NCBI GenBank assembly: GCA_036679085.1
Contig: JAZIGM010000053.1
Location: 106,869-170,868 of the forward strand
DNA from: Chloroflexota bacterium
GTDB taxonomy: Bacteria; Chloroflexota; Anaerolineae; Aggregatilineales; UBA3940
Direction: 5' to 3'
Length of the DNA: 64,000 nucleotides
How positions within the stretch are numbered: the first letter of the stretch is position 1; the number at the start of each line of letters is the position of its first letter. Position numbers and translations under genes: made by a program. The notes beneath the pieces are model-generated. The model was not told the origin of the DNA. It did not search any database and saw only the letters and a list, made by a program, of their open reading frames with translations. Below, piece by piece: positions 15,240-60,703 of this stretch.

Positions 15240-15483
15240 GCTCCCCTGCCTGATACGTGTATCACGTTCGCCCCCAGTGTAACCCGCAATTGTGAGGAAA
15301 GTGTGAAGGCGAGACTGCCCGGGAATGATGGTCTTAACAATTTAACTCGGCAACTATACAGGCTTTACCTGCCGAACCCCCTCCGGCGGGCTGGCATAAG
15401 CGACCCCGCCACCTACCCCTTGGAAGGGGGAGATTCAACCGAATTCTTGGGCCACAAGGCGACTGCGGCGGATTTCGCCCTCT

Positions 15484-34834: not shown

Positions 34835-37195
34835 ATGACGCACATCCCCGCTTCCAACCGGTCAACCTACCGGCTCGCCCTGATGACGCTCGTGCTGCTC
34901 GCGGCCTTTGCGCTGCGCGTGCTCGCCCTGGGCGGCGACTCCGTCTGGTGGGACGAGGGCTTCTCGGTATGGATAGCCCGGCAGCCGCCTGGCGAGTTGT
35001 TCTACCAGACGGCGGTGGACGTGCATCCGCCGCTGTACTACCTGCTGCTGCGCGGCTGGCGGGCGCTTGCCGGGGAAGAGGAGGTTGCGCTGCGGCTGCT
35101 CTCCGCGCTGCTCGGTCTGCTCGCCGTCGCAGTGATCGACCGCGCCGGGCGGACCGCCGGCGGGGGGCGCGCGGGCATTTTCGCCGCCCTGCTGCTGGCT
35201 GCCTCACCGCTCGCGGTGCGCTGGTCGCAGGAGATCCGCATGCACGTGCTCGCGCTGCTGTTCGCGGCGCTCGTGCTGTGGGCCGCGCTGAAGCTCATTA
35301 CCGGAGCCCGGCGGCGCTGGCGCTGGGCGCTCGTGCTGGGGCTGGCGACAGCGGGCGGCCTGCTGACGTTCTACGTGTTTGCCGGGGTGGTCGCCATAGC
35401 CAACCTCGGCCTGCTGATCGCGGTCGCCACGCGGAAGCGGCGCGGGCGGCTGGCCGGGCCGTGGCTCGCCTCACAGGCAGGCGCGCTGGCGCTCGTGCTG
35501 CCCTGGCTGATTTACGCACGCGGGCAGATGATCGTCGAGGCCGCACAGCCCATCGCCGCCGACCTCGGCTTCATCACGCGGCTGTACCTGAGCGTCGTGC
35601 TGCTCGGCATCTCGGAGAACATCGAGCGGGCCGGTGTACTGCTTGTCGCCGCCGCCCTGATCTTCATTGCGGCGGCGATCTTTGCGTGGCGGTCGGCCCG
35701 CCGCGTGCAACTACGGGCAGCGTGGGCGCTGCTGGCGTTCGGCGCAGCGCTGCCGCCGGTGTTCATCTGGATACTGTTCTCGCTGCCCCGTGCCGAGCGC
35801 TTCGACAACCCGACGCCCTCCGCCCGCTACTTCCTGCTGTTCTCGCCTGCCGCCTACCTGCTGCTCGGCTGGGGGCTGGCCGCCCTGAGCCGCGCCCGGC
35901 AGCGCGCGGCGCGCCTGCTCGCGGTTGCCGCCCTCGCCGTGCCGCTGATTGCATCGGGCGTGCGGCTGGCGGGCTACTATCAGGGCCTTGACCTGCGAGA
36001 CGATGCCATCTCCGCTGCCGCCGCGCTCGCGGCGCTGCGCCAGCCCGGCGACGCCGTGGTGCTGAACAACGATCAGGACTGGCCGATCTTCGCCTACCAC
36101 TACCCTGGCGACTACACGCCCATCACCTACACGCAGACCATCCGCGACGACGCCTATGCCGCCAGCCTGCTCGAACCGCTGTCAAACGCGCAGGGCGTGT
36201 GGCTCGTGCAGACCCAGTACGCGCCCGTCACCGACCCGGACAACCGCCTTGCTAAGCTGCTCGCCGCCCGTGCCGAAGCGGTGCGCCGCTACGACTTCCC
36301 CGAGGCGCAGCTCTGGTTCTACGCGCTGACGGAGGAACGGGCCGCGCCGGGCACGCTCGACCGGGTGGCCGGGTGGCCGCCGGGCTTCGAGGCGATCAGC
36401 GCCCCGATTGCGGACGGCGTGCGGCTGGCAGGCTACGCCCTCCCGACGCGCACGCCTCGCGCGGGCGACCTGCTCACGGTCGGGCTGGGCTGGCACGTCG
36501 AGACACCGCTTGAGGGCAACCCCACCGTCGCGCTAAAGCTCATCGACCGGCACGGCGCGGAGATCGCCTCGGTGCTGGCCGAACTGCCTTCCGGCGCGGC
36601 AGGCGATCACTACCTGCCGGTGCGGCTGTTCGTGCCCGCCGACACGCTCCCCGGCCCGGCGGACCTCGTGTTCGTCGCCGGGGAGACGTGGCAGACGCTG
36701 GGCCGGGTGCGTCTGCGCCCCGCCCGCCCGGTCGAGGCCGTGAGCATCCCGCCCGGCGCGGTGGAACTCCACGTGCGCTTTGGCGAGCATATCACGCTGC
36801 TCGCGGCGGAACTGCCGCCGCAAACGGCGTTCGCACCCGGCGAGACGGTCCCCGTGACGCTGTACTGGCAGGCAGACGCGCCCATACCGGAGCGGTACAA
36901 GGTGTTCGTGCACGTGGTCGGTGAGACGCCCAACACGGAAACAAACAACTTTGTGTGGGGCCAGCAGGATCAGGAGCCGGGGGGCGGCACGCACCCGACC
37001 ACCGGCTGGCGGCCCGGACAGGTGATCGTGGATTCGTACGCCGTGCAGATCCGCGAGGATTCACCGCCCGGCGCGTACACGGTGCAGGTCGGGTTGTACC
37101 TGCCGCTCGACTGGCGACGGCTGCCTGCTACCGGCGCGGACGGCACGCCGCTCGGCGATGCGGTCACGCTGCTTGAGATCGCGGTGGGAGAGTGA
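34835..37195 (+). CDS. ArnT/PMT-like GT-C membrane glycosyltransferase with large C-terminal extracytoplasmic region
   Basis: 786 aa. WWDEGFSVWIA...VHPPLYYLLLRGW first-loop pattern, about 11 TM segments, then about 400 aa soluble. Confidence 0.8.
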   Translation: MTHIPASNRSTYRLALMTLVLLAAFALRVLALGGDSVWWDEGFSVWIARQPPGELFYQTAVDVHPPLYYLLLRGWRALAGEEEVALRLLSALLGLLAVAVIDRAGRTAGGGRAGIFAALLLAASPLAVRWSQEIRMHVLALLFAALVLWAALKLITGARRRWRWALVLGLATAGGLLTFYVFAGVVAIANLGLLIAVATRKRRGRLAGPWLASQAGALALVLPWLIYARGQMIVEAAQPIAADLGFITRLYLSVVLLGISENIERAGVLLVAAALIFIAAAIFAWRSARRVQLRAAWALLAFGAALPPVFIWILFSLPRAERFDNPTPSARYFLLFSPAAYLLLGWGLAALSRARQRAARLLAVAALAVPLIASGVRLAGYYQGLDLRDDAISAAAALAALRQPGDAVVLNNDQDWPIFAYHYPGDYTPITYTQTIRDDAYAASLLEPLSNAQGVWLVQTQYAPVTDPDNRLAKLLAARAEAVRRYDFPEAQLWFYALTEERAAPGTLDRVAGWPPGFEAISAPIADGVRLAGYALPTRTPRAGDLLTVGLGWHVETPLEGNPTVALKLIDRHGAEIASVLAELPSGAAGDHYLPVRLFVPADTLPGPADLVFVAGETWQTLGRVRLRPARPVEAVSIPPGAVELHVRFGEHITLLAAELPPQTAFAPGETVPVTLYWQADAPIPERYKVFVHVVGETPNTETNNFVWGQQDQEPGGGTHPTTGWRPGQVIVDSYAVQIREDSPPGAYTVQVGLYLPLDWRRLPATGADGTPLGDAVTLLEIAVGE

Positions 37196-37200
37196 GTGAG

Positions 37201-37336
37201 TCCACAGATGACACAGATAGCACAGATGAAGGGGGTATCCACGAATGGCACGAATGACACGAATAAAAACATTAGTGCCATTCGTGTCATTTGTGGACAA
37301 ACCTTTTAATCCGTGCCATCTGTGAAATCTGTGGAC
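37201..37336. repeat. ~135-bp nested palindrome built from CACAGATG and CACGAATG 8-9-mers
   Basis: TCCACAGATGACACAGATAGCACAGATG...CCACGAATGGCACGAATGACACGAAT-loop-GCCATTCGTGTCATTTGTGGAC-AACCTTTTAATCC-GTGCCATCTGTGAAATCTGTGGAC. Starts 6 nt after the stop at 37195. Confidence 0.9.
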
Positions 37337-37371
37337 AAAAACAAAACGACCCGGGCACGCGCCTCGGGTCG
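37337..37371 (-). terminator. Intrinsic terminator of tmRNA
   Basis: On the minus strand, CGACCCG-loop-CGGGTCG is followed by TTTTGTTTTT, 8 nt after the tmRNA 3' end. Confidence 0.8.
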
Positions 37372-37378
37372 CTGACAG

Positions 37379-37767
37379 TGGAGCCGGGGAGAATCGAACT
37401 CCCGTCCAGAAAGTTCGCGCCCTCACGTCTACGAGCGTAGCCGGTTTATTGCATGTTTCGCCCCGCCCCGCGCCAACCGGCAGGCTCGGCTGGGGGCTAG
37501 TCTCCCTTTTGGTCTTAGGTGCTGCCCGGAGACCGGCGAGCACCGCACCAGCGCCTTTATGACGCCCGGAACTCAGCCGACGCTGTCAAACTGAGGCGGA
37601 CGTGACCCCTCGCAAGGGGTCAGCTTGGCTTAGGCTACTTACGCAGCCATCGCCAGAGCAGGTGTCTGCTCGTTGGCATTTATTGTTTTGCACTTTGATC
37701 ACGGAGTCCAGTGCGCTCCGGCTCGCAGTGAGTTTGCATCCCTCCCTGTCGAAGCCATTACGGCCCC
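37379..37767 (-). ncRNA. ssrA: tmRNA (SsrA), tag peptide ANEQTPALAMAA
   Basis: 5' GGGGCCGTAATGGCTTCGACAGGGAGG. 3' GGACGGGAGTTCGATTCTCCCCGGCTCCA with G3-U70 in the acceptor stem. Tag reading frame GCC AAC GAG CAG ACA CCT GCT CTG GCG ATG GCT GCG TAA at 37677-37639. Confidence 0.93.
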
Positions 37768-47242: not shown

Positions 47243-47268
47243 ACCTCAAGCCCGTGGAGCCGTTGACG

Positions 47269-48282
47269 ATGAACCAACCCAGCCAGCAGATCCGCATTGC
47301 GCTGCCGAGCAAAGGCCGCATGGAAGAGGAAACGCTCGACTTCCTGGCCGCCGCCGGTCTGCACGTCAGCAAGACCAACCCGCGCCAGTACAGCGCCTCG
47401 ATCCCGGCGCTACCGGGGGCGCTGGTGCTGTTCCAGCGCACCGCCGACATCCCGAAAAGTGTCGCCGCCGGGGATATGGACCTCGGCGTGGCCGGCTATG
47501 ACAACGTGGTCGAGGCACTGAACGGCGACCTCAACGACGTGGTGATCATCCACGATGCGCTGGGCTACGGCGAGTGCGAGCTGGTCGTGGCCGTGCCGGA
47601 GGAGTGGCACGACGTAACCGACTTCGCCAGCCTCGCAGAGCGAGCGCGCACCCGGGGCCCGCTCCGCGTGGCGACCAAGCACGTCAACTCGGTCGAGCGC
47701 TTCTTCGCGGCGCGGGGCATCGAGCAGGTGCGGATCGTCAGCGCGGAAGGCGCGCTGGAAGCCGCGCCCGCCGTCGGATATGCTGACTTTATCGCCGACA
47801 TCACTTCAACGGGCACAACGCTGCGCGACAACCGCCTGCGCCCGTTGGAGGATGGCACCATCGTGCGCTCGCAGGCCGTACTGATCGGCAACCGGGCGGC
47901 GCTCGCCGGGCGTCCGGAGGTGCTGGAAGCCGCCCGGCAGATCCTTGAGTTCGTCGAGGCGCACCTGCGCGCGCGAGGGCAGTACCTGGTCTTTGCCAAC
48001 ATGCGCGGCGAGACGCACGAGGAGATTGCGCGGCGGGTGTTCGAGCAGCCCGACCTCGGCGGCCTACAGGGCCCGACGATCTCGCCGCTGCTGACCCGCT
48101 CCGGCGAGGGCGGCTGGTGGGCGATCAACTTCGTCGTGCCGCAGAGCCGGCTGTACGCAGCCATCCAGCAGGTGCGCGCGGTGGGCGGCAGCGGCGTCAT
48201 CGCGACCCCCGCCGCCTACATCTTCGAGGAGCACCCGGAGCGCTACCAGCGTCTGCTGGCGGCCCTCGGACGTGAAGCATAG
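47269..48282 (+). CDS. hisG: ATP phosphoribosyltransferase (long form)
   Basis: ATG 47269 with GGAG 9 nt upstream (GTG 47254 is possible). IRIALPSKGRMEEETLDFL, DLGVAGYDNVVE, ADFIADITSTGTTLRDN. Confidence 0.93.
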   Translation: MNQPSQQIRIALPSKGRMEEETLDFLAAAGLHVSKTNPRQYSASIPALPGALVLFQRTADIPKSVAAGDMDLGVAGYDNVVEALNGDLNDVVIIHDALGYGECELVVAVPEEWHDVTDFASLAERARTRGPLRVATKHVNSVERFFAARGIEQVRIVSAEGALEAAPAVGYADFIADITSTGTTLRDNRLRPLEDGTIVRSQAVLIGNRAALAGRPEVLEAARQILEFVEAHLRARGQYLVFANMRGETHEEIARRVFEQPDLGGLQGPTISPLLTRSGEGGWWAINFVVPQSRLYAAIQQVRAVGGSGVIATPAAYIFEEHPERYQRLLAALGREA

Positions 48283-48287
48283 GGGAG

Positions 48288-48383
48288 CCACAGATAGCAC
48301 AGATGGCACGGATGATTTTGTCCACGAATGACACGAATAGCATGAATGAAAAATATTCGTGTCATTCGTGACATTCGTGGATC
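48288..48383. repeat. CACAGATG/CACGAATG palindromic element between hisG and hisD
   Basis: CCACAGATAGCACAGATGGCACGGATG...TCCACGAATGACACGAATAGCATGAATG-AAAAAT-ATTCGTGTCATTCGTGACATTCGTGGATC. Starts 6 nt after the hisG stop; the right outer arm is missing. Confidence 0.9.
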
Positions 48384-48407
48384 ACTTTTAACGAAGCGGA
48401 GGCAGTT

Positions 48408-49760
48408 ATGGCCGACCAGTTATTCCCCATCTACACACTCGACGAGGCCCGGCACAGCATCCTGGTACGCGCCGCCCCCGATGAGATCGCCGTCACCGAC
48501 AGCCTGCTCGACGGCATCGAGCACATCTTCGGCGAGCGGCTGACGCCGGAGCAGGCCGTGCGCCGCATCGTGGACGACGTGCGCCGGACGGGCGACCTCG
48601 CGCTGAAAGCCTGGACAAAACGCCTCGACGGGGCGGATCTCACCGAGCTGGCCGTCACGCCGGAGGAGATCGCGCGCGGGCTGGAGGCCACCCCGCCCGA
48701 CGTGGTGGACGCCCTGCGCCTCGCCGCCGGGCGCATCGAGGCGTTCTACCGCAAGCAGCCGGTCACGTCCTGGCTGGACGCCTCCGCCGAGGGCACGCTC
48801 GGCCAGCTCATGCGGCCCATCGACCGGGTCGGCGTGTACGTTGCGGGCGGCACCGCGCCGCTGCCCTCCTCCCTGCTGATGAGCGCCATCCCCGCGCAGG
48901 TGGCGGGCGTGGGCGAGATCATCGCCTGCACCCCGCCCGCGCGTGACGGCTCGATCCCGCCCGTGATCCTCGCCGCTGCCCACGTCGTCGGCGTGACGAA
49001 GCTCTATAAGCTCGGCGGGGCGCAGGCCATCGCAGCGATGGCCTATGGCACCGAGAGCGTGCCGCGCGTGGACAAGATCGTCGGGCCGGGCAACCTGTTC
49101 GTCACACTCGCCAAGCGGCAGGTGTTCGGCGCGGTCGGCATCGACGGGCTGCTGGGGCCAACGGAGACGATGATCATCGCCGACGAGTCCGCCGCCCCGG
49201 AGACAGTCGCCGCCGACCTGCTGGCGCAGGCCGAGCACGACGTTCTCGCGCAGGCGATCCTCGTCACGCCCAGCCGGGCGCTCGCCGAGCGGGTCGCGGT
49301 GGAGGTCGCCCGGCAGGCGGAGGCGCTGAGCCGCGCGGACATCATCGCGGAATCGCTGCCGCGTGCGGGCGGCGCGTTGATCGTGCCCGACCTGGAGACG
49401 GCCTTTGAGGTCGCCAACGAGTACGCCGCCGAGCACCTCCAGCTTTCGATTGAGGACCCGTTCGGCTGGCTGGGGCATGTCAGGCACGCCGGGGCGGTGT
49501 TCCTCGGCGAGTCGTCGTTCGAGGTGCTGGGCGACTACGTGGCCGGGCCAAGCCACTCGCTGCCGACGAGCGGCACGGCGCGCTTCTCGTCCGGCATCAA
49601 CCTGCTGGACTTCGTGACGGTGGTCAGCGTGATCGGCCTGCGGCCCGACGCTGCCGCCGAGTTGAGCCGCACCGCTGCTCGCATCGCCCACGCCGAGGGG
49701 CTGACCGGGCACGCCGCCGCCGCCGAGGCGCGGATCAGTGGAGGCAGCCGTGAGAACTGA
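48408..49760 (+). CDS. hisD: Histidinol dehydrogenase
   Basis: 450 aa behind GGAGG. ...[27 protein letters not shown]..., QAEHD, GDY.AGPSH.LPT. Confidence 0.95.
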
Positions 49761-50871
49761 CCCAACCACCCAGATCGACTCGCTCATCCGGCCCGACATC
49801 CGGCAGATGGAGCCCTACACGCCCATCGTGCCGTTCGAGGTGCTGAGCGAGCAACTTGGCCGCGATGCCACCGACCTCGTCAAGCTGGACGCCAACGAGA
49901 ACCCGTACGGCCCCTCGCCGCGCGCGCTCAATGCGCTGGCCGCACTGCGCGACGCCGTGCCCATCTACCCCGACCCGGAGAGCCGGGCGCTGCGGGCGGC
50001 GCTCGCGGAGTACGCCGGTGTGGGGCCAGAGCACATCCTCGCGGGCGCAGGCGCGGACGAACTGATCGACCTGATCATGCGGCTGGTCATCACGCCGGGT
50101 GATGCCATCGTCAACTGCCCGCCAACATTCGGCATGTACAGCTTCGACGGGGCGCTGAATGGCGCGCGCGTCGTCGAGGTTCCACGCCGGGCGGACTTCT
50201 CGCTTGATGTGGAGGCAGTCGAGCGGGCGGCGCTGGAGAGCGGTGCGAAGCTGCTCTTCCTGTGCTCGCCCAACAACCCGGATGGCTCGCTCATCCCGCC
50301 CGACGTGCTCGACCGGCTGCTGCACCTGCCGCTTATCGTCGTGCTCGATGAGGCATATATTGAGTTCGCCGGGGTCGAGTCGGCGGCGAGCCGCGTGCCC
50401 GCCACACCCAACCTCGTCGTGCTGCGGACGTTCAGCAAGTGGGCGGGGCTGGCCGGGCTGCGCGTGGGCTACGGTGTGTTCCCGCTGGCGCTGATGGCGC
50501 ACCTGTGGAAGATCAAGCAGCCGTACAACGTGAACGTCGCCGCCGATGCCGCCGCCCGCGCCTCGCTGGCCGACCTGCCATACTTGCGCGCCAACGTCGA
50601 GCGCATCATCGCCGAGCGCGAGCGGCTGCTCGCCGCCCTGCGCAGCGTCACGTACCTGGAGCCCTACCCCAGCCGCGCCAACTTCGTGCTGTGCCGTGTC
50701 AGCGGCCTGAGCGCCGCCGCGCTGAAACAGCGCCTCGCGGCGGACTACGGCATCCTGATCCGCTACTTCGACAAGCCCGGCCTGCGCGACCACGTGCGCC
50801 TGTCCGTCGGCACGCCGCAGCAAACGGACCGACTGCTCGCCGCGCTCAGGGAGATCGAGGCGGGGGTGTAG
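49750..50871 (+). CDS. hisC: Histidinol-phosphate aminotransferase
   Basis: GTG 49750 has GGAGG 5 nt upstream (track start is GTG 49738). [33 protein letters not shown] (PLP lysine). Confidence 0.93.
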
Positions 50872-50914
50872 AGGTACGGTTAAAGATCAGAACGGAGGAC
50901 AGGGAACAACACAC

Positions 50915-51511
50915 ATGACCAACCGCCGCGCGACCATCACGCGCCAGACCAACGAGACGAACATCACGCTTACCCTCGACCTCGACGGCACGGGCCAGGC
51001 CGAGATCAGCACCGGCGTGGGCTTCTTCGACCACATGCTGCACCATGTCGCCGTGCACGGCCTGTTCGACCTGATCGTCAAGGCAGAGGGTGACCTTCAC
51101 ATTGACGCCCACCATACCATCGAGGATGTCGCCATCGTGCTGGGGCAGGCGCTCGACCAAGCGCTCGGCGAGCGGCGCGGCATCGTCCGCGTCGGCGAGG
51201 CGACCGTGCCGATGGACGAGGCGCTCGCGCAGGTCGTCGTAGACGTAAGCGGGCGGCCCTACGCCGTGTTCGGTGGTGAGTTCCGCGCGCCCATGCTGGG
51301 GCAGATGCCGTCCTCGCTCGTCGAGCACGTCTTTGAGTCCATCGCCATGAACGCCAAACTGAGCCTGCACGCGCGGGTCCTGTACGGGCGCGACGACCAT
51401 CACAAGGCCGAGGCGCTGTTCAAGGCGCTGGGGCGCGCGCTCGACGCAGCCACCCGTCTCGACGAGCGGCGGGGCGGCGTGCCGAGCACCAAAGGCACCC
51501 TGACCGGGTGA
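50915..51511 (+). CDS. hisB: Imidazoleglycerol-phosphate dehydratase (monofunctional, no phosphatase domain)
   Basis: 198 aa: [48 protein letters not shown]. Confidence 0.95.
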
Positions 51512-51521
51512 GGGATCGTTA

Positions 51522-51602
51522 TCCACAGATGACACAGATGGCACAGAGCAGGGAGGGGGTGTGACGGTATCAACGGGAGCCGCGAAGTTCATTCGCGGCG
51601 GC
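51522..51602. repeat. Partial CACAGATG element plus GGGAGGGGGTGTGACGG plus GGAGCCGCGAAGTTCATTCGCGGCGG
   Basis: TCCACAGATGACACAGATGGCACAGAG starts 11 nt after the hisB stop. The modules match 37201, 21805 and 59295. Confidence 0.8.
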
Positions 51603-51724
51603 TTGTACTCACTCGCGACAATACAGCAACATTCATTCGCGGCGGCCCTCTGAACGTGAATATTGGCACGAATCCGTCCCAGATGCGCTATACTCTGGCA
51701 GGCAACCGCCAACCGAGGTTCGAC

Positions 51725-52285
51725 ATGTCCAACACACCCGAAAAACCCTTCCCCGTCTCGTACTGGGTGGAGCCCGGCAGGCTGCTCGCCGGGGAATACC
51801 CGCTTTACCTGCCCAACACCGATCAGGCCGACGGCTACGACCGGCCCACCGACAACCGCGAGCGGGTGCGCCGCCTGCTCGAAGCCGGGGTCACGCTCTT
51901 TATCGATCTAACCGAGGAGGGCGAGCAGCCGCCTTATATGCCGCTCGTCGAGGAAGAGGCCGCCCGGCTCGGCGTCAGGGTCGAGCATCACCGCTGGCCG
52001 CTCAGGGACTTCGCCAGGCCGCCGGAAGACACGCTCGTCGCTATCCTTGACGACCTCGACGCGGCGCTGCGGGCGGGGCATACCGTGTACGTCCACTGCA
52101 AGGCGGGCATCGGGCGGACCGGTATGGTGGTCGGCACGTACCTGGTGCGCCGGGGCCTGTCGGGCGCAGAGGCGCTGGCGCAGATCGCGCGCTGGCGCGA
52201 GGACGTGCCCGACGACCGCCCCTCGCCGCTGGTCGAGCGCCAGCGCGAGCTGGTGCGGCGCTGGTCGGAGGATGGGCGGAAATAA
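51725..52285 (+). CDS. Cys-based (CX5R) dual-specificity/PTP-like phosphatase
   Basis: ATG 51725. VYVHCKAGIGRTGMV is the HCxxGxxR(S/T) P-loop. Confidence 0.8.
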   Translation: MSNTPEKPFPVSYWVEPGRLLAGEYPLYLPNTDQADGYDRPTDNRERVRRLLEAGVTLFIDLTEEGEQPPYMPLVEEEAARLGVRVEHHRWPLRDFARPPEDTLVAILDDLDAALRAGHTVYVHCKAGIGRTGMVVGTYLVRRGLSGAEALAQIARWREDVPDDRPSPLVERQRELVRRWSEDGRK

Positions 52286-52466
52286 CCTGCCGGGCGCGAT
52301 AATCACATGCGCCTGCGGTATCATCTTGTTGCCAGCGCCTATGCCCGCCGGGAGACGCCAGGCGACGAGCGGTCGAACACGCTTCGCCCTTTCATCCTTT
52401 TGTGTCTCGTCGGCTGGCATGGCACGACCGTAAGCCTATCTGAGAACAGGAACAGCACCAAGCTTT

Positions 52467-53405
52467 ATGAACGAGATTCTGCTTAACCGCCTGCGGGGCT
52501 GCGTCGTCGGGGCGGCCATCGGGGACGCGATGGGGATGCCGCTTGAGTTCGGCCCGCCCCCGCCGGAAGACGCCCTCGTGCGTGAGATGAAGCCGGGGCG
52601 GCTGCCCGCCGGGAGCATCACCGACGACACCGAGATGGCGCTCGCGCTCGCCGAGAGCCTGCTGGCGCACCGCCCGCTCGACCCGAACGACCTGGCCCGG
52701 CGCTTCGTGGACTGGGTCAAGGCAGATCCGCCCGACGTCGGTCTGCACACGAACCGGGTGCTGCGCCGCATCGACGCGGGCGCATCGTGGGAGGAGGCGG
52801 TCGAGGCGGTGATGAAGCAGAACCCGGACTCGGCGGGCAACGGCTCGCTGATGCGCGCCTGGCCGGTTGCCGTGGCCTACTGGGACGACATGGACAACCT
52901 GCTTGTCGATAGCTGGCGGCAGAGCCGGGTGACACACCCCCACCCGGACACGCTCGCCGCGAGCGCCTTTCTGAACGTGACGCTCTACCACCTCTTTCGC
53001 GGCTCGGAGCCCAGCATGGCGCTGATCCTCGCCTCGACGCTGGTCAGGATGGACGACGGGCTGTGGAAGGTGATCGAGAACGCGCCCTACCACGAGCGCA
53101 GCCAGCTTCAGAACAGCGGCTGGGTGCGTGACACGCTCCAGAGCGCCGTGTGGGGCCTCATCACGACCGACTCGTTTGAGGAGGCGGTTGTGCAGGTCGT
53201 CAACCTCGGCAACGACGCGGACACCGCCGGGGCGGTGGTCGGCGCGCTGGCAGGGGCGTACTACGGTCTTGACGCTATCCCTGAGCGCTGGAAGGCGCAG
53301 CTTCACGGTGAATGGCCGCTCGGCTCCGGCCAGATCTGGATGGTGGAGAATTTCATCGACCTGGCCGACCGTCTGGCTACCGATGGCCGTGCCGGGGCGG
53401 AGTAG
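52467..53405 (+). CDS. ADP-ribosylglycohydrolase (ARH/DraG) family protein
   Basis: 312 aa with N-terminal LRGCVVGAAIGDAMGMPLEF and C-terminal GNDADTAGAVVGALAGAYYG metal-site motifs. Confidence 0.88.
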   Translation: MNEILLNRLRGCVVGAAIGDAMGMPLEFGPPPPEDALVREMKPGRLPAGSITDDTEMALALAESLLAHRPLDPNDLARRFVDWVKADPPDVGLHTNRVLRRIDAGASWEEAVEAVMKQNPDSAGNGSLMRAWPVAVAYWDDMDNLLVDSWRQSRVTHPHPDTLAASAFLNVTLYHLFRGSEPSMALILASTLVRMDDGLWKVIENAPYHERSQLQNSGWVRDTLQSAVWGLITTDSFEEAVVQVVNLGNDADTAGAVVGALAGAYYGLDAIPERWKAQLHGEWPLGSGQIWMVENFIDLADRLATDGRAGAE

Positions 53406-53475
53406 TGCTCTCGCCCCACGCCGGCCCCGACCCAACCTTTGACGCGAGACAGAAATCATCAGGAGACCAACCACC

Positions 53476-54642
53476 ATGCTTGAAAAGGCCCGCGCCCTGC
53501 AGGAACAGCTCACTGCCTGGCGTCGTGACTTCCACCAGCACCCGGAACTCGGGTTTCAGGAGGTGCGTACGGCGGGCATCGTCGCCGCCGAACTGAGCAA
53601 GCTCGGCCTGCCCGTCCAGACGAACGTGGGCAAGACCGGCGTCGTCGCCACGCTTGGCGAAGGCTCTCCCGTTGTCGGCATCCGCGCCGACATGGACGCC
53701 CTGCCAATTCAGGAAGCCAACGACGTGAGCTACGCCTCGCAGACGCCGAACGTCATGCACGCCTGCGGGCACGACGCCCATACCGCCATCCTGCTCGGCG
53801 TCGCCCACCTGCTCGCCGGGCTGGACGACCGCCCGCCGGGGCAGATCCGCTTCCTCTTCCAGCCCTGCGAGGAGATGCAGGACGAGGAGGGCAAGTCCGG
53901 CGCGATGCGCATGATCGAGGAAGGCGCGCTTGAGGGCGTGGACGCGGTGATCGCGCTGCACGTCGCCAGCGACTACGAGCCGGGCGTGGTCTACGTGAAG
54001 GACGGCTACAGCATGGCCGCCGTGGACGAGTTCTACGCGACGATCAAGGGCGAGGGCTGCCACGGGGCGTACCCCCAGCGCGGCGTCGACCCGATCTACA
54101 TCCTTGCTCAGGTGCTCAACGCCGTGCACGGCATTCGCTCCCGCCGCATCGACCCGATACGCCCTGCCGTGATCTCGATTGGCTCGGTCCATGCCGGGCA
54201 CACAACCAACGTCATCCCCGCCGAGGTGCAGCTTCAGGGCACGATCCGCAGCTACGACGAGGAGACGCGCCGCAAGCTGTGGGAGGAGCTTGAGTGCGCC
54301 TTCGGGGTGGCGCGGGCACTGGGCGGCGATTACACGCTCAACATCGTCGAGGGCTACCCGGCGCTGTACAACTCGGCAGAGGTGGCCGCCGTTATCCGTG
54401 AGGTGGCGACCGATCTGCTCGGCGCGGACGCGCTCGGCAAGGCGGAGGCGGTGATGGGCGCGGAGGACTTCGCTTTTATGGCGCGGCAAGCGCCCGGTGC
54501 GATGTTCCACCTGGGCGCGAAGTACGACGAGCGCTCCCGCCCGCACCACAGCCCGCAGTTCAACATCAACGAGTCGGTGATGCCCATCGGCGTAGCGCTC
54601 CTCGCCGAAACCGCCCTGCGCCTGCTACAGCGGCTAGGATAG
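53476..54642 (+). CDS. M20D-family amidohydrolase (N-acyl-amino-acid/hippurate hydrolase-like)
   Basis: AGGAGA RBS. RRDFHQHPELGFQE, MHACGHDAHTA, FQP.EE. Confidence 0.88.
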   Translation: MLEKARALQEQLTAWRRDFHQHPELGFQEVRTAGIVAAELSKLGLPVQTNVGKTGVVATLGEGSPVVGIRADMDALPIQEANDVSYASQTPNVMHACGHDAHTAILLGVAHLLAGLDDRPPGQIRFLFQPCEEMQDEEGKSGAMRMIEEGALEGVDAVIALHVASDYEPGVVYVKDGYSMAAVDEFYATIKGEGCHGAYPQRGVDPIYILAQVLNAVHGIRSRRIDPIRPAVISIGSVHAGHTTNVIPAEVQLQGTIRSYDEETRRKLWEELECAFGVARALGGDYTLNIVEGYPALYNSAEVAAVIREVATDLLGADALGKAEAVMGAEDFAFMARQAPGAMFHLGAKYDERSRPHHSPQFNINESVMPIGVALLAETALRLLQRLG

Positions 54643-54689
54643 CGGCGTCACGGTTATTGGAATGACGCAGTTGGATGGGAGATTTTGAG

Positions 54690-54810
54690 TCCACAGATGA
54701 CGCAGATGAGGGGAAAGATGATCCACCAATGACACGAATGACACTAATAATTTTCATTCGTGTTATTCGTGACATTCGTAGACTAACCTTTTAATCCGGC
54801 CATCTGTGGG
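54690..54810. repeat. CACAGATG/CACGAATG nested palindromic element upstream of hisH
   Basis: TCCACAGATGACGCAGATG...TCCACCAATGACACGAATGACACTAAT-AATTTT-CATTCGTGTTATTCGTGACATTCGTAGAC-TAACCTTTTAATCC-GGCCATCTGTGGG. Confidence 0.9.
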
Positions 54811-54863
54811 CTCACCCTACCTACGCACAACGACATACGGAACTTCTATCGGGTCAACCACGT

Positions 54864-55469
54864 ATGATCGCCATTATTGATTACGGCGCAGGCAACCTGC
54901 GAAGTGTGGCCAACGCCTTCCGGCGGCTGGGCGCAGACGTGCAGACCGTCAGCGATCCGGCGGCGCTGGCCCACGCCGAGAAGATCGTACTGCCCGGCGT
55001 CGGCGCGTTCGGCGCGGGGATGGCGCGGTTGCGTGAGGCGGGCTTCGTCGAGCCGCTGCGCGAGGCGGCCCGCGCCGGTACGCCGCTGCTCGGCATCTGC
55101 CTGGGGCTGCATTATCTCTTCGAGTCGAGCGACGAGATGGGGCGGCACGAAGGGCTTGGCCTGCTGCCGGGCCACGTGACCCGCTTCCCTTCCGGCGCGC
55201 TGAAAGTGCCGCACGTCGGCTGGAACGCCCTGCACCGCCAGCAGGAGCACCCGCTTCTGGCAGGTATCCCTGACGGTGCGTATGCTTACTTTGTACACTC
55301 TTATTATGTGCAGCCCGCCGACCCGGCAATGGCGCTCGCCACCACGGAGTACGGCATTCGCTTTGCGTCTGTCGTCGGCCAGGGCACTATTTTTGGCATC
55401 CAACCCCACCCCGAGAAGAGCCAATCGGTGGGCTTGCGAGTACTGAAGAACTTTATTGATATGGAATAG
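54864..55469 (+). CDS. hisH: Imidazole glycerol phosphate synthase, glutamine amidotransferase subunit
   Basis: [45 protein letters not shown]. Confidence 0.95.
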
Positions 55470-55485
55470 GTGGAGACAGCAACTG

Positions 55486-56241
55486 ATGATTGTATACCCG
55501 GCAATTGACATTCACGGCGGGAAGGTCGTGCGCTTGAGACAGGGCGACCCCAACCGCCGCATCACGTACAGCGACGACCCGATCGAGGTGGCGCACCGCT
55601 GGAAGGACGCAGGGGCCGAGTGGATTCACGTGGTCAACCTCGATGGGTCGTTCGACGACGCCGACTTTAACCTTGATACCCTGCGCGAGTTGGCTCGCAT
55701 CGGGCCGAAGATCCAGTTCGGCGGCGGCCTGCGCGACGTAGACGAGATCCGCGAGGTGCTCGACGCGGGCGCGTCGCGCGTGGTGCTCGGCACGCTGGTT
55801 GTCCGCCTGCCGTACATCGCGGAGGACGCTCTCAATGCCGTCGGGCCGGAGGCGATTGTCGTCGCGCTTGACGCCAAGCAGGGGCAGGTCATGATCCATG
55901 GCTGGCAGCAGCAGTCGGGCTGGTCGCCGGTAGAGCTGGGCCAGCGCTTCGCCAACATGGGCGTGAGGTACGCGCTCTACACCGACGTCACGCGGGACGG
56001 CGAGCTGCGCGGCGTGAACGTCGAGACGACGGCCCAGCTTGCCCGCGAGACCGGGCTGGACGTCATCGCCTCCGGCGGCGTGGCGACCCTGCAGGATGTG
56101 GAGGCGCTGCGGGTGGCGGGCGAATCGCTGGAGAAAGGCTCGATCGCCGGCGTGGTGATTGGCCGCGCGCTGTACAGCGGCGCGGTGGACCTCACCGAGG
56201 CGATCCAGGTGGCAGCAGGCCCGCAGCCCGTCGAGGAGTAA
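55486..56241 (+). CDS. hisA: ProFAR isomerase
   Basis: ATG 55486 behind [56 protein letters not shown]. Confidence 0.93.
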
Positions 56242-56245
56242 GGCG

Positions 56246-57014
<769 letters not shown>

Positions 57015-57022
<8 letters not shown>

Positions 57023-57332
57023 CCGGGTGCGCTGGAACGAGCAGGGGCTTGTGCCCGCCATCGTGCAGGACGACGCCACCGGGCAGGTGCTGATGCTGGC
57101 CTACATGAGCCGCGAGTCGCTCGCGCGCACGCTGGAGATCGGGCAGACGGTGTTCTGGTCACGCTCGCGGCAGGAACTGTGGCACAAGGGCGCGACGAGC
57201 GGCAACACGCAGGATGTCGTGTCCATCCATCTCGATTGTGACGGCGACGCCCTGCTTCTGCGGGTGCGCCCGGCTGGTCCCGCCTGCCACACCGGCGAGG
57301 TGTCGTGCTTCTTCACGGAATTTTCAACGTAG
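57015..57332 (+). CDS. hisI: Phosphoribosyl-AMP cyclohydrolase
   Basis: [53 protein letters not shown]...GPACHTG..SCF. The start is uncertain: TTG 57015 with GGAGGG upstream, GTG 57027, or ATG 56982. Confidence 0.9.
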
Positions 57333-57347
57333 AGCAAGGAACCCAGC

Positions 57348-57629
57348 ATGGACATCCTCTCGCGCGTGTTTGCCGTCGTCGAAGATCGCAAGGCCAACCC
57401 GAAGCCGGGCTCATATACCAACCACCTGCTTGACGCCGGGGAGGACGAGATCGTCAAGAAGATCGGCGAGGAAGCGGTCGAAGTGATCCTCGCGGCGAAA
57501 TCTCAGGGCAACGAGCGGATCGCCGAGGAAATGGCCGACCTGGCCTATCACTGCCTGGTGCTGCTCGCCGCGCGCGGGCTCTCGCCCGCCGACGTCGCCG
57601 CCGAACTGGAGCGGCGGTTTGGGAAGTAA
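57348..57629 (+). CDS. hisE: Phosphoribosyl-ATP pyrophosphatase
   Basis: 93 aa: SYTNHLLDAGEDEIVKKIGEEAVEVILAAK...EMADLAYHCLVLL. Confidence 0.93.
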   Translation: MDILSRVFAVVEDRKANPKPGSYTNHLLDAGEDEIVKKIGEEAVEVILAAKSQGNERIAEEMADLAYHCLVLLAARGLSPADVAAELERRFGK

Positions 57630-57735
57630 GGGCACCCTCGCCAGGCAGCACCGGCGGTGGGGGTTCTCGCCCGGCGCATCTCCCGCCTGTTGCTATCCTA
57701 TCCATGCCATCTGTGGATGAAAGAAGGACTCTTCC

Positions 57736-59244
57736 ATGCGTGCACTGCTCAGCGTCTCCGATAAATCCGGCCTGGTGGACTTCGCCCGTGGGCTTGCGGC
57801 GGCGGGCTACGAACTTGTGGCGAGCGGCGGCACTGCCCGCGCCCTGCAGGATGCCGGGCTCGACGTGACGCCGGTCGAGGCCATCACCGGCCTGCCGGAC
57901 CTCCTCGGCGGGCGCGTCAAGACGCTGCACCCGGCGATCCATGCCGGCATCCTCGCCCGCGACACCGAACCCGACCGCGCCACACTCGCCGAGCACGGCT
58001 GGCAGCCCATCGACCTCGTCGCGGTGAACCTCTACCCGTTCGTCGAGGCTGCCGCCCGCGCCGACGCCACGCCGGAGGAGCTTGTCGAGCAGATCGACAT
58101 CGGCGGGGTGGCCCTGATCCGCGCGGCGGCCAAGAACTACGAGCGGGTGACGGTCGTCACCTCTCCCGCCGATTACGACGCCGTGCTTGCGGAGATCCGC
58201 GCGGGCGGCGTCACGCCGGAGACACGGCGCACGCTCGCCGCCAGAGCCTTTGCCGCTACCGCCGCGTACGACAGCGCGATTGCCGCCAGCTTTGTCCAGC
58301 GGTACGGGCAGGCCGACCCGCTCCCGCCCGCTCTGACCATCGCCCTGCCCCGCGCCGAAACGCTGCGCTACGGCGAGAACCCGCACCAGCAGGCCGCGCT
58401 GTACGCGCCGCCCGGCGTCGGTCCGCTCGGCGGCGAGCTGTTGCAGGGGAAGGCGCTCTCGTACAACAACCTGCTCGACCTCGACGCTGCGTGGGCGGCA
58501 GCCGTTGACTTCGATGCGCCGACGGTTGTGATCGTCAAGCACCTCAGCCCGGCAGGCATCGCCTCCGGCGCGGGGCTGCCCGACGCGTTCGAGGCGGCGC
58601 TCGCCTCCGACCCGGTGTCTGCGTTCGGCGGGGTCATCGCCTGCAACCGCCCCTTCGACCGCGACACGGCGGAGGCGCTCGGCGACCTGTTCGTGGAGGC
58701 CATCGCTGCCCCGGACTTCACGCCTGAGGCGGTCGAGGCACTGCAGGCGCGCAAGAACTGCCGCCTCGTGCGGATGCGGGACCTGCCGGGGCAAAGCCTG
58801 CTGCTGCGCAGTGTGCGCGGCGGGGTGCTCGCGCAGACGCCCGACCCCGGCGACGAGGCGGAATGGCGCGTCGTCACCCGGCGGCAGCCCACCGGGGACG
58901 AGCTTGCCGCACTGCGCTTCGCGTGGCGGGCCGTGCGCCACGTCAAGAGCAACGCCATCGTGCTGGCACAGGGCACGGCGACTGTCGGCATCGGCGGCGG
59001 GCTGCCCTCCCGTGTGGACGCCGTCGAGTTGGCGGTGAAGAAGGCAGGGGCACGGGCGCGGGGCGCAGTCCTCGCCTCCGACGCCTTCTTCCCCTTCCCC
59101 GATGGGCCGGAGGCGGCAGCCGCCGCCGGGGTGACAGCCATCGTGCAGCCGGGCGGCTCGGTGCGTGACGACGCGGTGATCGCTGCCGCCGATGCGCTCG
59201 GCCTGGCGATGTGCTTCACCGGCGTGCGGCACTTCCGGCATTAG
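57736..59244 (+). CDS. purH: Bifunctional AICAR transformylase / IMP cyclohydrolase
   Basis: 502 aa: ALLSVSDKSGLVDFA, GGRVKTLHP, DLVAVNLYPF, IDIGG.ALIRAAAKN, VKHLSPAG, GGG.PSRVD, QPGGS.RD. Confidence 0.96.
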   Translation: MRALLSVSDKSGLVDFARGLAAAGYELVASGGTARALQDAGLDVTPVEAITGLPDLLGGRVKTLHPAIHAGILARDTEPDRATLAEHGWQPIDLVAVNLYPFVEAAARADATPEELVEQIDIGGVALIRAAAKNYERVTVVTSPADYDAVLAEIRAGGVTPETRRTLAARAFAATAAYDSAIAASFVQRYGQADPLPPALTIALPRAETLRYGENPHQQAALYAPPGVGPLGGELLQGKALSYNNLLDLDAAWAAAVDFDAPTVVIVKHLSPAGIASGAGLPDAFEAALASDPVSAFGGVIACNRPFDRDTAEALGDLFVEAIAAPDFTPEAVEALQARKNCRLVRMRDLPGQSLLLRSVRGGVLAQTPDPGDEAEWRVVTRRQPTGDELAALRFAWRAVRHVKSNAIVLAQGTATVGIGGGLPSRVDAVELAVKKAGARARGAVLASDAFFPFPDGPEAAAAAGVTAIVQPGGSVRDDAVIAAADALGLAMCFTGVRHFRH

Positions 59245-59251
59245 GTAGGGT

Positions 59252-59453
59252 GTCCACAGATGGCACAGATAACACTGATGAGGATGTACTGAGTGGAGCC
59301 GCGAAGTTTATTCGCGGCGGATTTTCTCTACCTTTGCGAGGGGATAATAGTCCGCGAATGGCACGAATGACACGAATATTTTTAAATCATTTCATTTGTG
59401 CCATTCGTGGACAGATTTTTCTTTTATCTGTGAAATCTGTGTCATCTGTGGAC
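59252..59453. repeat. Full nested CACAGATG/CACGAATG palindrome with a GGAGCCGCGAAGTTTATTCGCGGCGG hairpin inserted in its left half
   Basis: GTCCACAGATGGCACAGATAACACTGATG...[59295-59320]...CCGCGAATGGCACGAATGACACGAAT...TTGTGCCATTCGTGGAC...ATCTGTGAAATCTGTGTCATCTGTGGAC. Starts 8 nt after the purH stop. Confidence 0.9.
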
Positions 59454-59571
59454 TCATCCCCCTCCACTGGAACGGGTGCGGTGTGCTTGAAAGATCTCTC
59501 TCACCGGGTTTTGCGTATATACTGGTAAGAACGGGTAAGAACGCCAGAGGTTGATAGAGGGAGACAGTGTA

Positions 59572-60631: not shown

Positions 60632-60703
60632 GGAGCCGTGGAGTTCACTCGCGGCGCTCCTGACAACATCCATCCATCCGTGACATCCGTGCCATTCGTG
60701 GAC
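60632..60703. repeat. GGAGCCGTGGAGTTCACTCGCGGCGC hairpin plus right half of a CACGAATG element
   Basis: CATCCGTGACATCCGTGCCATTCGTGGAC at 60675-60703. Confidence 0.75.

Follow-up and report, generated by a model that had tools for sequence, protein, structure and literature searches.

The nested palindromes and their genomic setting

The window analysed here is a 64,000-nt stretch of Chloroflexota DNA (~67% G+C) in which a family of palindromes lies among ordinary genes. The first copy, at 37200–37336, sits between a gene for a PMT_2-family glycosyltransferase and the 3′ end of a tmRNA gene; the GC-rich terminator belonging to the tmRNA gene itself lies beside the element, at 37346–37375. The remaining copies occupy the spacers of an operon with the order hisGDCB, three extra genes, hisHAFIE and purH, as well as the region downstream of purH. 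All features are given on the plus strand.

The copy at 37200 is a nested A3-B3-loop-B3′-A3′ palindrome in which complementary arms follow each other in reverse order around a 6-nt loop. Its 5′ half consists of an outer, A-type 5′ arm (37200–37227; GTC-CACAGAT-GA-CACAGAT-AG-CACAGAT), a linker, and an inner, B-type 5′ arm (37237–37264; ATC-CACGAAT-GG-CACGAAT-GA-CACGAAT). Past the loop, AAAAAC, come the B-type 3′ arm (37271–37298; ATTAGTG-CC-ATTCGTG-TC-ATTTGTG-GAC), which pairs with 37237–37264, then AAACCTTTTA, and finally the A-type 3′ arm (37309–37336; ATCCGTG-CC-ATCTGTG-AA-ATCTGTG-GAC), which pairs with 37200–37227. A full arm opens with a foot, either GTC or ATC, whose pairing partner is GAC at the opposite end, and then repeats a 9-bp unit three times in tandem, the unit being a heptad (CACAGAT or CACGAAT) with a 2-nt spacer. 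An earlier note on this DNA had described tandem 8–9-nt units in an order permuted between the left and right arms; the tandem arrangement holds with the unit refined to a 7-nt box and a 2-nt spacer, and the apparent permutation reflects the spacers, which are unlike between partner arms in the window copies. An ATG at 37226–37228, followed by AAG, resembles the ORF start of the complete cassettes described below.

The hisG-hisD spacer contains a solo A-type 5′ arm (48287–48313; CACAGAT, CACAGAT, CACGGAT), 6 nt past the hisG stop, and a complete B-type hairpin of 3 + 3 units with a 7-nt loop (48320–48382). Another solo A-type 5′ arm lies past the hisB stop (51521–51548), with a small CGCGAAg/ATTCGCG hairpin next to it at 51576. 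The copy at 54689–54811 is nested and degenerate, consisting of a 2-unit A arm, a B hairpin (54721–54783), the linker AACCTTTTAATCC and a 1-unit A′ remnant, and just upstream of purH there is a remnant, a single ATCTGTG unit with a GTGGAT foot (57704–57718). A third nested copy, at 59252–59453, comprises an A 5′ arm (59252–59279), a small GGAGCCGCGAAGTTTATTCGCGGCGG hairpin (59295–59320), a B hairpin (59350–59412) and an A 3′ arm (59426–59453). The last element is a solo 3′ arm (60676–60703; ATCCGTG-AC-ATCCGTG-CC-ATTCGTG-GAC), adjoined by a degenerate small hairpin at 60632. The nested composites at 37200, 54689 and 59252 follow the same order and have the linker partly in common.

The palindromes form a genuine family, as the earlier note had proposed. 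Within the window CACAGATG occurs 11 times (1.7 expected) and CACGAATG 12 times (2.1 expected), and none of 100 shuffles reached either count. The predicted RNA folds are extreme, at −79.2 kcal/mol for 37196–37340 (z = −12.9) and −99.5 kcal/mol for 59248–59458 (z = −11.0). A scan that tolerated up to three mismatches found six clusters in the window versus none in a shuffled window. Period-9 tandem arrays are confined to seven sites in the interval 37.2–60.7 kb, with none in 1–37 kb; these are the seven sites listed previously, with the refinement that 57704–57718 is one unit and that the copies at 51522 and 60675 are solo arms. Also borne out are the distances of four copies from the stops at 37195, 48282, 51511 and 59244, which are ORF ends: the elements begin 6, 6, 11 and 8 nt past them, respectively.

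Fixation in strains and absence from relatives

The window recurs, with 98–100% of sampled words, in metagenomes from compost, biogas digesters, soil and manure. Every element is in place both in contigs that are 99.99% identical and in others that are ~95–98% identical, and the 37200 copy is also kept in contigs from four other habitats, all strains examined being 95–100% identical. One strain has a cluster of substitutions within one arm. The presence/absence polymorphism that had been suggested as a mark of mobility was not found for the window elements among the strains examined, nor was there any sign of present mobility here, and no unoccupied site turned up at close range, all strains examined carrying the elements. 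They are, though, absent from related genera: a relative whose PurH is 73% identical (L248; loci are designated by L numbers) has a compact, overlapping hisG...hisE-purH operon with no element, and another with a 77% identical PurH (L247) has no element in 19 kb. As the elements are fixed in the strains and absent from the relatives, they were gained in this lineage, at junctions where the genes of a relative overlap, and are now fixed. Read depth within the 37200 copy is 5–6 times that of its flanks in the contigs from the other habitats, indicating further near-identical copies elsewhere in the genome.

Three-box arms in other genomes

We scanned species-representative genomes, one per species, for three CAC-RR-AT boxes at period 9. 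The loci of these scans were ascertained by the motif itself, and the counts that follow are among the matches listed. A partner arm at least 20/25 complementary lay no more than 400 nt downstream of 57 of the 145 arms in the species-representative genomes, and an upstream partner was found for only 8 of the same 145. Permuted control heptads also gave tandem matches, but their inverted partners numbered 0/116 and 0/172. The raw count of tandem matches was dropped as evidence of enrichment, since permuted heptads match as often in viral contigs, probably owing to 9-nt repeats that are common in coding DNA; evidence of specificity was restricted to the inverted-partner statistic and to a scan in which the middle base was left free. 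Among the matches listed, the partnered arms in bacteria fall in Planctomycetota, Verrucomicrobiota (including Akkermansia and Opitutales), Acidobacteriota, Bacteroidota, Chloroflexota and Leptospirales, and further ones were found in a MAG of Nealsonbacteria (CPR), a Salinisphaera isolate, an uncultured archaeon and a tailed phage.

The arrays are uniform in build and vary in the distance between arms. Exactly three units were present in 146 of 152 runs and the spacing was 2 nt in 356 of ~380 cases, both among the matches listed, and loop length ranged from 0 to more than 300 nt. Loci seeded with an arm contained one extra cluster per ~36 kb, versus one per 822 kb in shuffled sequence, which implies a copy number of the order of one hundred in carriers. 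In the metagenome scan with a free second box base, that base was a purine (A or G) in all three units of 148 of the 164 arms listed, and all 64 partnered arms among the matches listed were purine-only at this position. The box is therefore C-R-C-R-R-A-T, and the consensus reads 5′-(R)C-[C-R-C-R-R-A-T-nn]x3 - loop - inverted copy, with the CRC end facing outward. The window copies all have this form, being three-box period-9 arrays with an (R)C foot, inverted and with CRC outward.

BLAST against plasmids returned no match, and Rfam covariance models yielded only tmRNA and tRNA at the gathering score, with generic miRNA-hairpin noise added at E ≤ 10. A comparison of long loops, L020 versus L037, revealed no internal homology. 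A literature search on the box strings and on repeat-element keywords found no description. Resemblances to the DnaA box, the parS half-site, the CsrA GGA motif, the sigma-54 −24 box, the Rex box, Type III restriction sites, integron attC cores, dif and MraZ repeats were dropped as partial or type-specific.

Constraint on the boxes

What is conserved can be read from the partner arms, to which the search pattern was not applied; genomes and metagenomes give the same picture. In partner arms, C1, C3, A6 and T7 are conserved at 0.91–1.0, the three purine positions agree between arms at 0.75–0.98 and the foot at 0.92, whereas the 2-nt spacers agree at only 0.37–0.64, near the prediction from composition alone. 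The L530 contig illustrates this, as its purine choices are uniform across arms and its spacers unlike. Invariant boxes combined with nearly independent spacers indicate a constraint on the sequence of the boxes and not on continuous pairing.

One way to account for such a constraint is that the box arrays are double-stranded DNA sites of a nucleoid-associated or regulatory host protein other than the nuclease described below, and that the hairpin is a by-product. The invariant 7-bp boxes, the free 2-bp spacers, the fixed number of three units, the two-fold symmetry and the purine choices shared by the boxes of one genome, exemplified by L530, would all suit a protein-binding site. We nevertheless regard this explanation as quite unlikely: loops of 0 to more than 300 nt leave no fixed half-site geometry, a 9-bp period would be expected to place successive boxes on different faces of B-DNA, and no conserved neighbouring regulator was found. 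Moreover, the copies behave as lineage-specific insertions, and in many phyla the arms delimit a specific cargo gene.

Hairpins in a phage and a possible RNA role

The phage contig L160, which carries tail genes and a diversity-generating retroelement (DGR), has at least five of the hairpins between co-oriented genes, each 7–14 nt past a stop, and the loops of some enclose a further, GC-rich hairpin. At one such site a relative with a 92%-identical neighbouring protein has only the 5′ arm left, and in distant relatives the genes overlap at the junction where L160 has a hairpin, so that in the phage lineage too the element was gained where relatives' genes overlap. These comparisons suggest that L160 mirrors the his operon, with insertion at a gene junction followed by decay.

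The position of the hairpins raises the question of whether they are primarily functional RNA, acting as mRNA 3′-end stabilisers, terminators or processing sites, with the link to a nuclease being incidental. Their folds are very stable, their sites lie a few nt past stops in both the window and phage L160, and they are retained in all strains examined. Hairpin sides face gene 3′ ends in 60 cases and 5′ ends in 44, and divergent spacers are depleted (8, versus 22 convergent and 48 tandem). Other properties speak against a conserved RNA structure. No U-tract follows the stem; whichever strand is read, the sequence 5′ of it is rich in T and that 3′ of it rich in A, and a simple terminator scan makes no call on the elements, whose AT-rich stems likewise led us to set aside an intrinsic terminator. 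Mismatches show no sense-strand excess of G·U (18 versus 22, p = 0.64), the near independence of the stem spacers beside invariant boxes marks a constraint on sequence and not on pairing, and solo arms are common. The 3′ arm has been lost in the close relative of phage L160, and the elements are missing from related genera. A primary role as RNA structure is not supported by these data and we consider it unlikely, although the hairpins may have a secondary effect on the mRNA.

A GxxExxY nuclease gene between the arms

In L530 the ORF beside the arms belongs to PF13366 (PDDEXK_3) / TIGR04256, the ‘GxxExxY protein’. A local profile search identified this family in 12 of 240 arm-seeded cellular loci, nearly always directly against the arms. 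PF13366/TIGR04256 genes lie between or against arms in L530, L502, L605, L565, L550, L079, L119 and L570; L598 has a partial gene that is cut by the contig edge, and in L081, L567 and L073 the gene is frameshifted, fragmented or a pseudogene, representing intermediates of decay. The canonical order is a 5′ arm, 0–33 nt, an ORF of ~125 aa and, 2–20 nt past its stop, a 3′ arm, and complete cassettes measure ~0.45–0.55 kb. The start codon either adjoins the third box of the 5′ arm or shares bases with it; in L502, L605 and L119 the ATG is built from the AT of that box. In L530, L567 and L079 the gene is located between complete small hairpins and not within one simple pair of arms.

In an independent test, in which the search was seeded with the protein, both arms were found at two of three distinct homologue loci (L608; L612–615), and the third (L610/611) had one arm, its 5′ arm being absent. 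Overall, two arms enclose the gene in at least 12 independent loci outside the window. ORF-less hairpins often retain a purine-rich ATGAAGAAG or ATAAGAAGAA past the third box, and the window copy at 37226 reads ATGAAGGGGG. By its sequence, this tract resembles the start codon and the Lys/Glu-rich N-terminal codons of a lost gene. Neither a GxxExxY gene nor a remnant of one was found in the window and the loci from the same species, which together cover 64 kb plus ~5 kb of the genome.

Among small ORFs whose stop lies at a 3′ arm, no other family recurs; in one phage locus the ORF in this position is an HNH gene. All-against-all clustering of neighbour genes placed kinases, ABC transporters and similar genes in the top clusters, with a GxxExxY cluster spanning three loci. 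No long-range arm pairs enclosing insertion sequences were found, and the ORFs between distant arms are ordinary genes or the phage DGR.

Alignment of the GxxExxY proteins shows G27, E30, Y33, D70, E80 and K82 to be invariant or nearly so, and D70 together with E80-x-K82 is, at the level of the alignment, an intact PD-(D/E)XK motif. The AlphaFold model (pLDDT 94) has as its nearest folds Cas4 SSO0001, lambda exonuclease, RecE and Holliday-junction resolvases (Hjc); no sequence match was found in the PDB. A protein search returned at least 8,000 candidates for the family, and the mentions of ‘GxxExxY’ in the literature searched include none about repeats. In the one systematic treatment that we found, PDDEXK_3 is a family of unknown function that occurs in prokaryotes and viruses and has been transferred several times between bacterial divisions, archaea and viruses (PMC3424549), and such transfer across divisions and domains fits the distribution of the arms.

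Relation to known palindromic and mobile elements

In several respects the window copies could pass for classical MITEs of a DDE-type insertion sequence that has an autonomous copy elsewhere in the genome. They are small, ORF-less and present in many copies, with terminal inverted repeats of ~28 bp and unlike interiors, and the earlier note was right to describe them as MITE-like, with no target-site duplication and no transposase gene in the window. Inverted termini, small size, noncoding content and high copy number are thus as in MITEs; a target-site duplication and a transposase-bearing insertion sequence with the same ends are missing. No target-site duplication is visible at any window copy, and in the flanks of these copies and of 53 cross-phylum hairpins we found extension of the palindrome in place of direct repeats. 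Furthermore, across ~360 loci there is no transposase between or beside the arms, and the PD-(D/E)XK gene is the sole recurrent cargo. An origin from a DDE element consequently appears very unlikely.

Correia/nemis and ERIC-type MITEs are also short, ORF-less inverted-repeat elements found between genes and in operons, and they likewise form long mRNA stems that are nuclease substrates. Unlike the elements described here, they are confined to one genus or family and have target duplications (TA for Correia); we know of no cargo-bearing parent with a PD-(D/E)XK gene for them. Free-standing homing endonuclease genes (phage seg/mob, and I-Ssp6803I, which is of the PD-(D/E)XK type) are similar to the cassettes in that a small promoter-less nuclease gene lies between genes, is patchy in distribution and is often decayed. 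They differ, to our knowledge, in having neither conserved inverted repeat arrays that bound them nor hairpin relics. The long inverted termini of Drosophila Foldback elements are made of tandem short subrepeats and many copies are without a coding middle, as here; these are elements of a eukaryote, their arms are far longer and their transposase is another one, and the likeness is one of form only.

The earlier note had considered REP- or BIME-like roles equally possible. The mosaic nested layout, with other small hairpins interspersed among these extragenic palindromes, is indeed BIME-like; the GTAG or CGTC tag, a U-tract and a sense-strand G·U bias are absent, and no RAYT gene was seen beside the arms. 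A REP is defined as a short imperfect palindrome with a 6–13-bp stem and a GTAG or CGTC tag at one end, and REP super-families are known in Chloroflexi and in the phyla of Planctomycetes and Verrucomicrobia (PVC) (PMC3733652). REP/REPIN elements resemble the present family as high-copy extragenic palindromes, often paired or in mosaics, and in that a short motif extends across distant phyla with one small nuclease-type gene flanked by repeats (PMC3733652). They differ in their enzyme, an HUH/Y1 transposase as opposed to a PD-(D/E)XK protein, and in their tagged stems of 6–13 bp (PMC3733652) as opposed to untagged stems of ~28 bp made of three tandem 9-bp units. Pfam and clustering checks of the neighbour ORFs found no Y1 transposase beside the arms. 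That the palindromes are REP/REPIN elements kept by a RAYT (Y1/HUH) transposase strikes us as highly improbable.

The intervening sequences of 23S rRNA (Coxiella and Leptospira type) offer a parallel for the complete cassettes. The Coxiella element, a selfish sequence of 428–444 nt, has a terminal stem of 28 bp around a small ORF, and RNase III excises it (PMC4990558). Like these sequences, the complete cassettes are inserts of ~0.45 kb in which a stem of ~28 bp encloses one small ORF, and the window copies correspond to the stem alone. Both are sporadic, horizontally spread and tolerated in transcription units, the cut by RNase III being documented for the intervening sequences (PMC4990558). 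Their cargo, by contrast, is a four-helix-bundle protein (S23p/PF05635) and here it is a PD-(D/E)XK nuclease; S23p/PF05635 was looked for between the arms and none was found. Their insertion sites are helices 9, 25 or 45 of the rRNA, whereas all copies seen here are between protein genes.

Proposed origin of the window elements

Several lines of evidence suggest that the elements in the window are probably ORF-less, ‘solo-stem’ and MITE-like relics of a widespread family of palindromic cassettes whose parent carries the GxxExxY nuclease gene. The arm architecture, its occurrence in multiple phyla, the gene nested between arms and the frameshifted intermediates of its decay are observed directly, and we infer the link of the window copies to the GxxExxY cassettes from their common arm architecture. 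The likely parent is a nuclease cassette of ~0.5 kb and not a transposase-bearing insertion sequence. Its complete form was seen in other genomes only, and for this reason the earlier reader of the window had no view of it.

In the mechanism that we propose, the candidate nuclease would recognise the boxes, or a cruciform formed by them, and would promote copying of the cassette to new sites just downstream of host genes. The nuclease gene, having no promoter of its own, would be read through from the upstream host gene, and cassettes would persist best downstream of and co-oriented with host genes, as they are in L605, L550, L081, L119, L610 and L612. Loss of the gene would leave the hairpins as neutral or mildly useful passengers. 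By analogy with the 23S rRNA intervening sequences, the ~28-bp stem in transcripts is probably a substrate of RNase III or a 3′ barrier, and either cutting of the stem or a barrier at the 3′ end would make insertion tolerable within operons such as hisGDCB...HAFIE-purH. Nested copies (B within A, or the small CGCGAA hairpin within A) may have arisen by secondary insertion or recombination within the space that the gene once filled.

In broader terms, three-box arrays and the GxxExxY nuclease may together constitute an undescribed class of autonomous mobile element, distributed across bacterial phyla, archaea and phages, that inserts downstream of genes and decays to ORF-less hairpins; we advance this tentatively, as a proposal whose chances fall slightly short of even. 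It is plausible, at the least, that the window elements are palindromic non-autonomous mobile DNA with an identifiable candidate parent that is undescribed in the literature searched.

If the link is true, it would give a testable role to the large GxxExxY/PDDEXK_3 family of unknown function and one origin to intergenic palindromes in many bacterial phyla, CPR, archaea and phages. It would also place next to REP-RAYT a second system in which a small nuclease maintains a short DNA motif across phyla. The putative recognition code is simple, with C1, C3, A6 and T7 invariant, a purine at each of positions 2, 4 and 5, and three units, and it could be tested biochemically. Recognising these elements should improve the annotation of intergenic regions and operons in poorly studied phyla and would explain breaks in assemblies at repeats. 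The contig breaks that we saw at the elements in contigs assembled from RNA runs are repeat artefacts of this kind.

Strain variation and companion repeats

The hisE-purH spacer of same-species strains (L244-L246, ~95% identical) contains a 73-nt member of a third repeat family, with core CCTCCCCCTTGCAAGGGGGAGG, that is missing at window position 57652; this insert is a presence/absence polymorphism between strains. It is flanked on each side by AGCAC, a pair that is possibly a 5-bp duplication. Members of this family lie at window positions 15412, 21524, 37965, 42730 and 46864 and at L244:9839-9912. Another strain difference lies within a heptad-array element, a palindrome with arms of three 9-bp units, each a C-R-C-R-R-A-T box plus a 2-nt spacer. 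At L246:2790-2812, corresponding to window positions 59262-59281, one strain has six clustered substitutions in the outer 5' arm of the element at 59252, with CAC changed to CTC in two units. The remainder of the element is identical, a pattern that suggests conversion from another copy.

A second repeat in the window, GGAGCCGCGAAGTTYATTCGCGGCGG, is a small hairpin represented by six copies at ≤1 mismatch compared to 0 expected, all six on the + strand (10251, 21588, 21831, 40930, 51576 and 59295), with a degenerate copy at 60632. Its 7-bp stem (CGCGAAg/ATTCGCG) is the same as one C-R-C-R-R-A-T box, and three heptad-array elements (51522, 59252 and 60675) have the repeat within or adjoining them.

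Genomic setting

The his operon (window 47254-59244) is interrupted by three inserted genes, encoding a PTP-like phosphatase, an ADP-ribosylglycohydrolase and an M20 peptidase, and is further broken up by element-bearing spacers; in a relative from another genus (L248), it is compact with overlapping genes. The 37200 element is separated by a GC-rich terminator (37346-37375) from the tmRNA gene that this terminator serves (37376-37767, - strand; tag peptide ANEQTPALAMAA).

Variant arrangements in other genomes

At least five heptad-array hairpins lie between late genes of a tailed-phage contig (IMGVR_UViG_3300033153_013534; L160/L250) that also has a diversity-generating retroelement (Lcl_C target, bAvd and reverse transcriptase), and two of them have a terminator-like GC hairpin nested in the loop. 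On a second viral contig (L162:9470-9985), an arm pair 466 nt apart encloses a 153-aa HNH endonuclease ORF, which may represent a second type of nuclease cargo. The variant cassette at L119:880-1290 has 3-nt spacers, a 10-bp period and CGCAGAT/CGCAAAT boxes, and its arms enclose an intact GxxExxY nuclease gene. Elements with the same arms are repeated head-to-tail in an Akkermansia MAG (L037:3400-3900) and a Leptospirales MAG (L058:3950-4300), with periods of ~413 bp and ~316 bp, respectively; the outer feet, the short paired (R)C ends of the arms, face one another across 20-40 nt.
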